A DNA stretch of 64,000 nt, taken from the NCBI RefSeq assembly GCF_054482525.1, contig NZ_JBTHVG010000003.1; one strand, given 5' to 3'. Source of the stretch: a plasmid. Every line of letters begins with the position of its first letter. Position 1 is the stretch's first letter. The position numbers are program-made. Shown piece by piece: positions 46,201 through 49,200 of the stretch.

Positions 46201-49200
46201 AGAGGATGTATTTACTATCTACGCTCGGATCCAGTAAATCTGAGAGAGAAGGGCGCTTGTCCGGATAAAAGTCTTTAATGTCTCTCAGAGTAAAACCGTC
46301 TTTCAGACGTAGGTCGCGGCGAAAACCAATAAGGACGATACGTTCACGGTGCTGGGGTCGGAAATGACGGCCATCGATGACTTTAGGATCATCCGCGCCC
46401 GTGCTTTCGCTGTTTGCGACGTCGTAGCCAAGCTCATCGAGCGTTTTCATGATGATGTTAAAGGTATTACCCTTATCGTGACTCTTCAGATTTTTTACGT
46501 TTTCCAGAACAAAAATTGCAGGTTGTTTTGCCCGGATGATCCTGGCCACATCAAAGAAGAGCGTACCCTGAGTGTCGCACTCGAAACCGTGTTTGCGACC
46601 CATAGAGTTCTTTTTACTGACACCGGCGATGCTGAATGGCTGGCATGGAAATCCCGCAAGAAGAACATCATGATCCGGGATAGAGGCATCGATAAATTTG
46701 TATGCCTCGTCATCAGTAACCTCGGGCCGGTTGCTAAGAGTGATGTCACGGATGTCTGAATTGAAGCGGTGCTCGTTCTCATCGCAATACCAGTTCGCCC
46801 GGTAAGTACGGCTGGAATAAGTATTCCATTCGCTCGTGAAAAGACATTTACCACCGATGGCATCAAATCCGCTTCGCAGTCCACCTATCCCTGCAAACAG
46901 ATCGATAAAGCTAAAGTGCCTGTCCTCATAATCAGCAGGTCGTGAAGGTATTAAAGTCTGTAGATAGCGTCCATCTGCGATACTCAGCTCACAATGCTCA
47001 GGTATGCATGTAACCTGACGTTTAAGGGATGCACGGGACCAATTACTGCCATTTTCATCATTTAATACCTGAGCCAGATATTTCAGGTCATAAATGGTCG
47101 AAGCTGTTAACAAAGTTTTGTGGATCAGAGATGGTGTTTTATCCACATCATTCAGGTCTGTCTCAAGATCATGAGTGTAACGTTTCATCCAAACTCTCTC
47201 AGGAATAATATCTTTGAGATAGATTAACACGCTTAATTTGGATTATTTTTTGGTTCAGGTTCTAAATTTATTGTGATTATTCTGCCTTTAAGTTGCAAAA
47301 AGATTGGTTTTAAGCCCGCCCATGAAATAATGACTTGTTAAAATACTGCCTGTAAATAGGCTTGTGGATACATGTCTGTACTCAACAAATCAAGGTGAAA
47401 TGATGTTTTTTTTAACAAAGTTACTTTTGCCCATCATGATTGTTGTATTCCCAGTGGCGTCCTGGGGGAACTCAACAACTTTTGAGGCAAAGGTGGTTAA
47501 GATTGTTGACGGTGACACCATAACTGCGTTGGATGCTCAAAACACAACCATCAAAATACGGATGTATGGTATAGACGCTCCTGAATCTAAACAGGCTTTT
47601 GGCCAAAAAGCAAAACAGGCCTTAACCACAGCTATAGCAACTAAAATCGTTACCGTGATAGACCATGGTACGGATATCTATGGCCGTATGTTAGGTACCA
47701 TCTGGTTAGATGGATATGATATCAATGCCTCTATGGTGGACAGTGGATATGCGTGGGTTTATCGGTTCGAAGATAACGCCATTGTCCCTGGCTATATCAA
47801 ATATGAATCCGCAGCACAAAAGGAGGCAAAAGGGTTATGGGCAGACACCAACCCTGTCCCACCATGGCAGTGGAGACAGGCAAACGAAAAGCCCAGAAAG
47901 GTGAAAGAGAAGAAATAACCATGATGAAAGAGCCTCATCCGTTACTTCAGTTGGTACTAAACGATTCCGGTCGTCTAACCATGCCTGTTTATTATAGAGA
48001 TCAACAGTATTGCCCGACTTGCCTTACAAAGGTGTTGAAGAGTGAGGATGGAAGTTTGGCGCACCTCGGGGAAATAAATCAAAATACATGTAGACCTTCT
48101 ATTTCAGTAGTTGTGACAAAAGCAATTATTGAAATGTTATGTGACGGGGAAAAAATATATGTAAATCCAATACGACACCGAGGCCGGGTGCTGGCACCCT
48201 CAGTAATTTTTTCTCCCGACACTCACACTTTCAAACCGTTTATAAATACAGACTATCAGCCTGTGGGAGCAAACTGGAAAAGTGAAAAGGGATATAAACT
48301 CGGTCTGTTTTATCTCAAAGATCGAGCCAACTCTATCAATAAAGAGGAATTTGATTTCATTGCCGTTATAGACCCTGAGGCAATGCAGAAAGAATTTATT
48401 TCGGCCTGGTCTGAGGTTGATGAAAAAAATCCATTGGAAACGCTGAAGCAGATCTTACGATCTAAAAACAACTCTTCTTTATGGGTAAAATGGCCTGGCA
48501 AAATTGAGCATGCGCAAAAAGGAAATTACAACGAAAATTACTGGTTCGATTATCAATCTGATAATCAGGAAGTGAACTGTACGGTCTCTGTTGTAGGTAT
48601 CGAAGGTAACAGTTCCGGTGAGACAATTTATAGATTGCAAACTTTGCTAAAGCGTAAGCTCAATGAATATCAACTGGTTCGGTCTTTAGGTACTATTATG
48701 CTTCTTGATAATACCGGGAATATGATTCCATCAAACCATCCTTATTTTGAAGTCATCTCAAAAGCATGTATAAATGGAGTGCGTGACTTTGTTCGTCAAA
48801 ACCCGTGGGTAGTCTGACGGTCAACTATAAAGCATAATATAATTAGTAATAACAAGGAACAGACATGAATGAAAACTCAGTAATCTTAATAAGTTTATTT
48901 TGGTTTTTTTTGGGATCGAGTGTTGTAGCTGGTTTTATGGATGCATCATTATATTGCTGGATTTTTGCAGCCATAAGCGCATTGTTTCTTCTTTCGGTGA
49001 TACAAACACCAAAGGAGTTAACGGTATCTATTAGTCATATGACAAGCAAAACGCTGATCTCAAAGACAGATGATGGATACACATTTAGCATTTCACCTTA
49101 CGGAGACGGGTACCGCTTATCAGTCTCGCCTGAAAATCGTCACAATGGTACCCAAAGCTTTGACGGCTGGTTCCCACGTTTTTTTTCCGAACCACAGTAT

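Follow-up and report, generated by a model that had tools for sequence, protein, structure and literature searches.

The window analysed here, a 64,000-nucleotide stretch of plasmid DNA (NCBI RefSeq assembly GCF_054482525.1, contig NZ_JBTHVG010000003.1), is IncHI2 plasmid backbone that matches 1137 plasmid records, 1119 of them with at least 99% identity. On the plus strand it carries a 171-aa SNase-family (thermonuclease) gene at 47403..47918, annotated in plasmid records as a thermonuclease family protein, followed by a gene for a 298-aa protein at 47921..48817 (stop codon at 48815-48817), referred to below as the partner. The two genes form a unit of the IncHI2 resistance-plasmid backbone that was sequenced long ago, and their counterparts in the IncHI1 plasmid R27 are R0153 (the 'parB' nuclease) and R0152, respectively. 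Divergent from the nuclease gene, on the minus strand, is an orphan C5 cytosine methyltransferase gene (45761..47188; Pfam DNA_methylase, E 3.8e-75, with DNA_meth_N), and beyond it, also on the minus strand, lies a DUF1173 gene (44191..45510; E 4.6e-39), the counterpart of R27 R0156. R27 and pHCM1 share the arrangement of DUF1173, a 55-aa ORF and an M.EcoRII-like methylase followed by the divergent SNase and partner genes; the R27 nuclease is 74% and the R27 partner 52% identical to the window proteins. R27 differs in its incompatibility group, and the IncHI1 partner has a C-terminal extension of approximately 14 aa.

The nuclease covers the full Pfam SNase profile (PF00565, positions 1-107) and scores 85.6 bits (cut-off 21; E 3.9e-24). 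When six orthologues were aligned with the Staphylococcus aureus thermonuclease (Nuc, nuclease A), the DGDT motif and residues R54, D59, P61, E62, Y94 and R96 were invariant, and D39, R54, D59, E62 and R96 matched the catalytic or Ca2+-ligand residues D21, R35, D40, E43 and R87 of Nuc, suggesting that the enzyme is Ca2+ dependent. The two proteins share the fold family, these residues, an export signal and 31% identity, whereas Nuc, an enzyme secreted by a Gram-positive bacterium, has a propeptide and lacks a coupled downstream gene. Neither of two NCBIfam equivalogs was reached (EcnA, NF047969, 68.2 vs 180; NucI, NF047694, 49 vs 250), and dN/dS for the nuclease was 0.13-0.16. An alternative in-frame ATG at 47400 would give a product of 172 aa; the spacing of the Shine-Dalgarno sequence AAGGTGA at 47392-47398 favours the second ATG, at 47403, and the NCBI annotation starts the gene there too.

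A Sec signal peptide, MFFLTKLLLPIMIVVFPVASWG, is predicted at 47403..47468 (plus strand) from hydropathy and a layout heuristic, with K6, a hydrophobic core of 13-15 residues and small-residue sites VAS and SWG. The Kyte-Doolittle maximum over 15 residues is 2.45, at residue 2, and the likely cleavage site follows VAS (residue 20) or SWG (residue 22). The n/h/c layout is kept in all nine of the orthologues compared despite divergence of the sequence, so that the Pfam match and this conserved predicted layout agree with the description of the first gene, in the first-pass annotation, as an exported SNase-type nuclease. A run of eight T residues was noted in the same annotation immediately after the start codon; the run is present, but it occupies 47406-47413 and not 47403-47410, since the sequence reads ATGATG followed by T8. 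It encodes Phe-Phe-Leu within the signal peptide. The run was considered as a phase-variation switch and rejected as such, since none of the close loci checked (three other IncHI2 loci) departs from T8 in length. The sole 'frameshifted' record carries single-base losses in G runs of both genes and looks like a sequencing error.

The junction between the two genes (47916..47923, plus strand) consists of the nuclease stop codon TAA at 47916-47918, a CC spacer at 47919-47920 and the partner ATG at 47921, which confirms directly the 2 nt spacing reported previously. A terminator scan found no terminator-like site between or after the two genes. With its start only 2 nt past the nuclease stop, the partner would be translated by coupling, which the geometry of the junction suits. 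Close spacing was found in all 11 loci in which the two genes are linked, ranging from an 8 nt overlap to a 17 nt gap, with a 4-nt overlap of the form ATGA or GTGA, an 8-nt overlap or a gap of 5-17 nt among relatives. The 11 loci span partner identities from 100% down to approximately 20%, and all are related plasmid backbones, so the samples are not fully independent. In one of them (L013) the nuclease and partner remain adjacent though every other neighbour differs.

Expression of the downstream gene was also considered, given the caveat in the first-pass annotation that the 298-aa ORF might not be expressed. Mass spectrometry data for four IncHI1 plasmids include both counterpart proteins, the partner being assigned in these data by gene order and not by sequence (PMC5390554 Table S3); Kubasova core gene 2 was likewise identified with the partner by gene order. 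In R27 arrays comparing 25 and 37 °C, the changes were 1.93-fold for R0152, 2.86-fold for R0153 and 4.73-fold for R0154, the methylase counterpart, and in an htdA mutant the three genes were up 16.3-, 15.6- and 11.1-fold, respectively (PMC7366339 supplement). The htdA mutant derepresses 139 of the 181 expressed R27 genes (PMC7366339), and the induction is therefore not specific to this block. The detection of the partner counterpart by mass spectrometry and on arrays answers the caveat, and the pairing in 11 loci together with the co-induction in R27 upholds the earlier view of a real, expressed downstream gene tightly coupled to the nuclease.

The partner is a real, selected gene and not a chance ORF, as indicated by a start (MxxxHPLL) and motifs conserved among homologues and by a dN/dS of 0.19-0.24. 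As previously proposed, it has no signal peptide: there is no hydrophobic N-terminus or transmembrane segment (maximum Kyte-Doolittle value over a 19-residue window, 1.16), and by this measure the protein is predicted to be cytoplasmic. The family is uncharacterised, confined to MOBH-type (IncHI/IncT-like) plasmids and small, with 34-44 protein clusters among 5.8 billion proteins (a profile search of this set widened it only to 44) and 20 representatives among 1.84 billion. Its members are of approximately 300 aa, with a pI of 5.5-9.0 and near neutral charge, and only P93, W119, S121, G124, W188, E234, L261 and C283 are invariant. There was no match to the partner in Pfam, NCBIfam, PADLOC or PHROGs, nor in sequence and profile searches of the PDB, and Foldseek comparison of its AlphaFold model (pLDDT 71.5, pTM 0.59) with PDB and viral structures gave no match at E 0.001 or better. 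No functional study of the nuclease-partner pair turned up in the literature searched. The statement in the first-pass annotation that the second protein could not be placed thus still stands for family and fold, with the exception of a probable N-terminal zinc ribbon.

This putative ribbon (48011..48091, plus strand) comprises C31-P-T-C34, H48 and C57, a CxxC...H...C motif that is conserved in most homologues and lost in some. Its spacing, CxxC ... (F)xH ... C, is shared with the N-terminal zinc ribbon of CoiA (Pfam CoiA_N, DUF7828, DUF7830). Sub-threshold Pfam matches of one distant member, P0049 (DUF7828, E 1.6e-4; DUF7830, E 3e-3; CoiA_N, E 0.079), point the same way, and the partner may bind zinc. 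CoiA_N was seen below threshold in two of the 20 members (P0049 being the better) and in none at the gathering score; the window protein itself matched none of the three families, and the CoiA nuclease domain was matched by none of the 20 members.

The region between the divergent methylase and nuclease genes (47189..47402) presumably contains both promoters. Lineages share little of it beyond a short CTAACACGC-like block. It also contains an imperfect 21-nt direct repeat (copies at 47271-47291 and 47335-47355); the repeats in this region do not exceed chance expectation, and a promoter scan gave a site count no higher than in shuffled sequence. The methylase counterpart in R27 is listed with 66.7% identity to M.EcoRII (R27 annotation), and in 10 of the 11 linked loci the divergent neighbour is a C5 methylase, L013 being the one without it. 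This association raises the question of a module resembling restriction-modification, in which the M.EcoRII-like methylase would have the partner as its cognate, fast-evolving endonuclease and the SNase gene would merely lie between the two. The partner is an orphan of approximately 300 aa, as restriction enzymes often are, and its P-(S/D) ... S-x-K pattern faintly recalls the active site of the Cfr10I/NgoMIV type, which we treat as a lead only. Against this, the position of the would-be catalytic Asp (residue 94) holds Ser in the window protein and is variable among homologues, a search of the partner for a conserved endonuclease catalytic motif or fold found none, there is no methylase near the homologues in L013, L016 and L017, and the partner gene is disrupted or kept independently of the methylase. 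The partner was rejected as a restriction enzyme on account of the variable 'catalytic' positions and the methylase-less homologues, and a module of this kind is considered highly improbable.

The conserved arrangement bears more directly on the suggestion, made in the first-pass annotation, that the nuclease is encoded with its inhibitor. A cytoplasmic partner would bind newly made nuclease before export and shield the DNA of host and plasmid, in the manner of barstar with barnase and NuiA with NucA. Gene order, tight coupling and compartments (an exported enzyme and a cytoplasmic protein) are shared with barnase-barstar, Anabaena NucA-NuiA and colicin DNase-Im; the order of nuclease then partner, 2 nt apart or overlapping, is conserved in the 11 loci, and its persistence over deep divergence while other neighbours turn over, as in L013, is the pattern of a functional pair. 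The RNA levels of the two genes move in parallel in R27, and evolution is faster in the partner (dN 0.106-0.166) than in the nuclease (0.046). The distribution of the two families argues otherwise, with SNase homologues on at least 5000 plasmids and the partner family on 1556, and with the nearest SNase genes outside IncHI1/2 followed by a PLD-family gene, H-NS or HU. In Klebsiella plasmids of the IncHI1B type, DUF1173 is divergent from the SNase gene, the methylase and partner are both absent at the site, and a PLD-family gene stands directly after the SNase gene in the position of the partner; the nuclease gene is thus found with DUF1173 in a wider range of plasmids than with the partner. 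Partner homologues of full length (hhalign probability 99.35%) that are unlinked to a nuclease gene are found on Klebsiella and IncT plasmids: K. variicola p2_KVTMDU carries both genes 105 kb apart, and the IncT homologue has no adjacent nuclease.

Natural disruptions of the partner gene also count against an inhibitor. IS903B truncates the partner to 120 aa in a natural plasmid in which the nuclease gene is intact, and in ten Salmonella plasmid records an mcr-1-pap2 insertion splits the partner after residue 257 with the nuclease gene again intact. The nuclease may not be expressed in these hosts, however, and partners truncated to 120 or 257 aa might keep some activity. The converse case, a natural plasmid with the partner intact and the nuclease not, was also found. 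An AlphaFold2 model of the nuclease joined by a linker to the partner showed no gain of order and no confident interface (pTM 0.44 vs 0.59 for the partner alone), and the disordered loop of the partner stayed disordered; this negative result is weak, since it was obtained by linker fusion from only nine paired rows and with no contact map. Known inhibitors such as barstar, NuiA and the Im proteins are of approximately 85-135 aa, often acidic and indispensable, whereas the partner is large (298 aa) and near neutral, natural plasmids can dispense with it, and its distribution does not follow that of the nuclease; it also resembled no known inhibitor in the Pfam, NCBIfam, PADLOC, PHROGs, PDB and Foldseek searches. 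Staphylococcal nuclease needs far more Ca2+ than is free in the E. coli cytoplasm. Precursor that has not been exported should therefore show almost no activity even with no inhibitor present, and on this established property an inhibitor is unnecessary. The mismatched distributions, unlinked homologues, natural disruptions and lack of a confident predicted interface leave the proposed inhibitor unsupported; the evidence argues against the partner as an essential inhibitor of the nuclease, and we regard a nuclease-inhibitor pair as unlikely.

Dispensability in natural plasmids would be compatible with a non-essential helper, a cytoplasmic protein devoted to the nuclease as its chaperone, export pilot or post-transcriptional regulator, which would give nuclease export a better yield or timing and on which survival would not depend. 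Tight coupling and co-regulation would fit such a role equally. Close SNase relatives with similar signal peptides manage without the partner, though, and the partner family also exists away from nucleases; in the fused model the signal peptide was unstructured and unaffected, and the fold of the partner is unlike that of any known chaperone. A helper of this type is judged very unlikely.

Other plasmid-encoded nucleases offer partial parallels. The name 'parB' of R0153 stems from the ParB nuclease of the RP4/RK2 parCBA operon, which is likewise an SNase-homologous nuclease on a conjugative plasmid. RP4 ParB is encoded alongside the ParA resolvase and ParC, in an operon for multimer resolution and stability, whereas the neighbours in the window are the C5 methylase, DUF1173 and the partner, with no ParA or ParC, and deletion of the whole block left the stability of R27 unchanged. 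The Nuc protein of pKM101 (IncN) is a periplasmic endonuclease of the phospholipase D family; the likeness to the window nuclease is one of function, both being plasmid-encoded, exported, non-specific nucleases, and the folds are different.

Taken as a whole, the locus is probably best explained as a two-gene operon of the IncHI backbone in which the partner is co-expressed with the nuclease and is not an obligatory antidote; on our reading it is an ordinary backbone operon, co-regulated with conjugation, whose second gene is uncharacterised. Both genes would be transcribed from the region shared with the divergent M.EcoRII-like orphan methylase, and the first would yield a Ca2+-dependent nuclease of the staphylococcal type, made with a Sec signal peptide and predicted to degrade nucleic acid non-specifically in the periplasm or beyond. 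Ca2+ dependence and the Sec signal peptide together would restrict its activity to outside the cytoplasm. The partner, with its probable N-terminal zinc ribbon and a putative alpha/beta body of unrecognised fold, most likely acts on its own, as a cytoplasmic accessory factor that would bind nucleic acid or protein during transfer-proficient states; this independent role is what we infer from the pattern above. In IncHI1 R27 the nuclease, partner and methylase genes rise together upon derepression of conjugation.

A stronger version of this link, in which nuclease, partner and methylase constitute a conjugation-induced module with a dedicated job, is distinctly unlikely. The nuclease might, for instance, be induced along with the pilus and, in the periplasm, break down single-stranded nucleic acid that comes in by that route, be it stray DNA or the genome of a pilus-specific RNA or ssDNA phage. 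In that case the partner would be a zinc-ribbon protein of new fold that senses or controls from the cytoplasm, possibly through conditional, non-essential binding of the nuclease precursor. The two points in favour of such a module are the co-induction with transfer genes in R27 and the persistent tight coupling.

Returning to the backbone operon favoured here, IncHI2 and IncHI1 plasmids rank among the main vehicles of multidrug resistance, mcr-1 and the resistance plasmids of typhoid included. Approximately two thirds of the R27 ORFs resemble no known gene (PMC4853401). The nuclease-partner pair is shared backbone of IncHI1 and IncHI2, expressed, and induced under transfer-proficient conditions, and the mcr-1-pap2 insertion in ten Salmonella IncHI2 records indicates that the partner gene behaves as a dispensable landing site. 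Knowledge of nucleases is unchanged by these results. For the plasmid family, the tempting annotation of the partner as a simple antidote falls away, and attention shifts to conjugation-linked phenotypes.

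The nuclease-partner pair is a real but ordinary backbone operon, sequenced since R27, whose products would be an exported SNase-type nuclease (export being predicted) and, translated together with it, a cytoplasmic protein whose family is uncharacterised and restricted to plasmids. As claimed in the first-pass annotation, the nuclease stop codon (TAA, 47916-47918) is separated by two bases, CC, from the partner ATG at 47921, which opens an ORF of 298 codons running to 48817. This start is confirmed because homologues begin at the same MxxxHPLL, and no conservation of a longer upstream ORF was seen among them. 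The T8 run that had been placed at 47403-47410 lies at 47406-47413, since the 5′ end reads ATGATG and then T8; a Shine-Dalgarno sequence (AAGGTGA, 47392-47398) suits the second ATG (47403), at which the NCBI annotation also starts the nuclease. The methylase-nuclease intergenic region contains a 21-nt imperfect direct repeat (47271-47291 and 47335-47355; 76% identical, 64 nt apart), which may be due to chance or be a lineage-specific operator, as other lineages do not keep it. After the partner come several small ORFs containing hydrophobic segments (135, 84, 113 and 76 aa; 48865-50164), and a promoter-like site with 10/12 matches lies at 48814-48843. The reference plasmid annotates only the first and last of these ORFs, giving the last a shorter start, and related loci have small genes of other lengths at this position.

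The SNase core was borne out by a match to the whole Pfam SNase profile (E 3.9e-24), and the nuclease falls below the NCBIfam equivalog cut-offs for both EcnA and NucI. DGDT, R54, D59, P61, E62, Y94 and R96 are invariant in an alignment of the nuclease with five orthologues (74% to 46% identity) and S. aureus nuclease A, and therefore the active site is intact. Nine orthologues vary in N-terminal sequence but share one layout (1-2 Lys, a hydrophobic core that scores >2 on the Kyte-Doolittle scale over 15 residues, and an AxA-like site); this layout is of the Sec type, in agreement with the reported signal peptide, and suggests export. At one related locus (L018:4213-4356), a 47-aa ORF just 5′ of the SNase gene resembles a decayed second copy of the start of the nuclease gene, covering the signal peptide and first strand. 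A 191-aa protein from 5 contigs (P0034) results from an in-frame deletion that joins residues 1-145 of the nuclease directly to the partner's final 46 residues; the C-terminal part of the nuclease and the bulk of the partner are lost.

DNA around partner homologues was recovered from 100% down to ~20% identity, and an SNase gene lies directly upstream of the homologue in 11 loci, supporting the proposed tight coupling; the junction is a 2-nt spacer, an overlap of 4 nt (ATGA or GTGA) or 8 nt, or a gap of 5-17 nt. One locus (L013) retains the pair although every other neighbour, methylase and DUF1173 included, is different. In L033 (NZ_KY401053.1), single-base losses in G-runs, equivalent to 47464 and 48068, frameshift both nuclease and partner, most likely a sequencing artefact at homopolymers and not a biological change. 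In L002, L005 and L006, the IncHI1-type nuclease-partner pair has a Thoeris-like pair, ThsB TIR and ThsA Macro (~10240-11690), about 1.3 kb downstream. R27 microarrays showed that R0152, R0153 and R0154, the ORFs corresponding to partner, nuclease and methylase, move in parallel (PMC7366339 supplement), with 1.93-fold, 2.86-fold and 4.73-fold changes, respectively, for 25 vs 37 °C, and 16.3-fold, 15.6-fold and 11.1-fold changes in an htdA mutant vs wild type at 25 °C (PMC7366339). According to the authors, R0153 is induced under all conjugation-promoting conditions (PMC7366339). Loss of htdA derepresses 139 of the 181 expressed R27 genes (PMC7366339), and therefore its effect is not specific to R0152-R0154. 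In IncHI1 proteomics, a 'nuclease' and an adjacent 'hypothetical protein', assigned as the partner by gene order, were each detected in 4/4 plasmids under one or more conditions (PMC5390554 Table S3). Nuclease, partner and orphan methylase are probably co-expressed under control linked to plasmid transfer.

The 1.6-kb region has matches in 1137 plasmid records (1119 at ≥99% identity), nearly all of them large conjugative MOBH/MPF_F plasmids, IncHI2A-typed, from Escherichia, Salmonella and Enterobacter. The backbone block, which IncHI1 plasmid pHCM1 also carries, is ordered DUF4942, 401-aa ORF, DUF1173, 55-aa ORF, C5 methylase, and then the divergent nuclease and partner; much of the window upstream of it (~9600-41500) is taken up, judged by collinearity with L014, by a Tn7-like transposition module with TnsA-D-like genes and, after it, the silver/copper resistance clusters sil and pco. 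R27 ORF numbers were paired with these genes by gene order, not sequence. In the R27 annotation reproduced in PMC4853401, R0152 is without meaningful similarity, R0153 is 'parB', a nuclease, R0154 shares 66.7% identity with M.EcoRII, R0155 is without meaningful similarity (its best match spans only 36 residues) and R0156 is the DUF1173 counterpart. A 6-kb R27 deletion removing R0150-R0157 is obtainable, and plasmid stability is not reduced.

No match to the partner was obtained in Pfam, NCBIfam, PADLOC, PHROGs or PDB sequences. Its family comprises 34 clusters among 5.8 billion proteins (44 with a profile) and 20 representatives among 1.84 billion proteins. The absence of a signal peptide was upheld: there is no hydrophobic segment, and we conclude from sequence that the partner is cytoplasmic. 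It has six cysteines and a near-neutral pI (family range 5.5-9.0), and dN/dS against two relatives was 0.19-0.24 vs 0.13-0.16 for the nuclease. Homologues keep the N-terminal motifs C31-P-T-C34 ... H48 ... C57, and further W-x-S-x-K-G, N-x-S-S-x-W-V-K-W-P, G-E-T-I-Y, L-L-L-D-N-T-G-N and C283. One distant member gave sub-threshold N-terminal matches to DUF7828, DUF7830 and CoiA_N, and thus the partner N-terminus is probably a zinc ribbon, pointing weakly to nucleic-acid or protein binding; the remainder is unplaced, and an AlphaFold2 model built from 23 sequences reached pLDDT 71.5 and pTM 0.59. Three points make it unlikely that the partner is the restriction enzyme belonging to the M.EcoRII-like methylase: the only invariant residues are P93, W119, S121, G124, W188, E234, L261 and C283, with the would-be catalytic Asp position varying; an endonuclease fold was not found among the structural matches listed; and homologues occur without a methylase nearby.

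The suggestion that the partner inhibits the nuclease did not hold for an obligatory inhibitor: distribution, unlinked homologues, natural knock-outs, a predicted complex and Ca2+ need jointly argue against it, making an obligatory antidote unlikely. SNase homologues occur on at least 5000 plasmids vs 1556 for the partner family. The nearest SNases outside IncHI1/2 (50-52% identity) are on Klebsiella IncHI1B/FIB plasmids, where the gene is divergent from DUF1173 with no methylase between (L022:2508-5385, K. pneumoniae NZ_CP055058.1; L026:37561-40233) and is followed by a PLD-family (phospholipase-D, Nuc-like) gene or H-NS, so DUF1173 is a more persistent nuclease neighbour than the partner. 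The IncC SNase has an HU gene next downstream. A Klebsiella variicola MOBH plasmid encodes a 343-aa partner homologue just after parA-parB, with its SNase 105 kb off beside DUF1173, and an IncT plasmid encodes a 262-aa homologue with no nuclease alongside. Profile-profile comparison showed full-length homology of the unlinked proteins to the partner (probability 99.35%, E 6e-21, 283 columns), and they form one group in a neighbour-joining tree, so linkage need only have been gained or lost once. The K. variicola plasmid (p2_KVTMDU) also carries CRISPR-associated genes (Cas6-family, helicase and Csf2; L025:26395-31369) that look like those of a type IV system.

Among the natural knock-outs, IS903B cuts the partner to a 120-aa stub in pSHV12-1301491 and leaves the nuclease intact. 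In 10 complete Salmonella IncHI2 records, mcr-1-pap2 is inserted at an identical junction after partner residue 257 (...EYQLVRSLG; for example L031:4380-6815, NZ_CP050131.1, equivalent to ~48691), removing the most conserved motif, and the encoded nuclease is identical to the reference; these 120- and 257-residue stubs may retain function. Conversely, pF18S032-1 has IS903B inside the nuclease gene and an intact partner. As a weak test for a complex, the nuclease was joined to the partner through a (GGGGS)6 linker and modelled with AlphaFold from nine paired plus twenty unpaired rows: pTM was 0.44, and neither the signal peptide nor the disordered loop of the partner gained structure. Staphylococcal nuclease requires far more Ca2+ than the free level in the E. 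coli cytoplasm, and therefore a precursor that is still to be exported should have almost no activity. That the partner serves the nuclease as a non-essential chaperone or regulator is a further, less likely reading, one that nothing positively supports. On the favoured account, the partner would work on its own and would not neutralise the nuclease, and the sole unusual element of the operon is this orphan partner, without a recognisable fold or demonstrated link to nuclease function.
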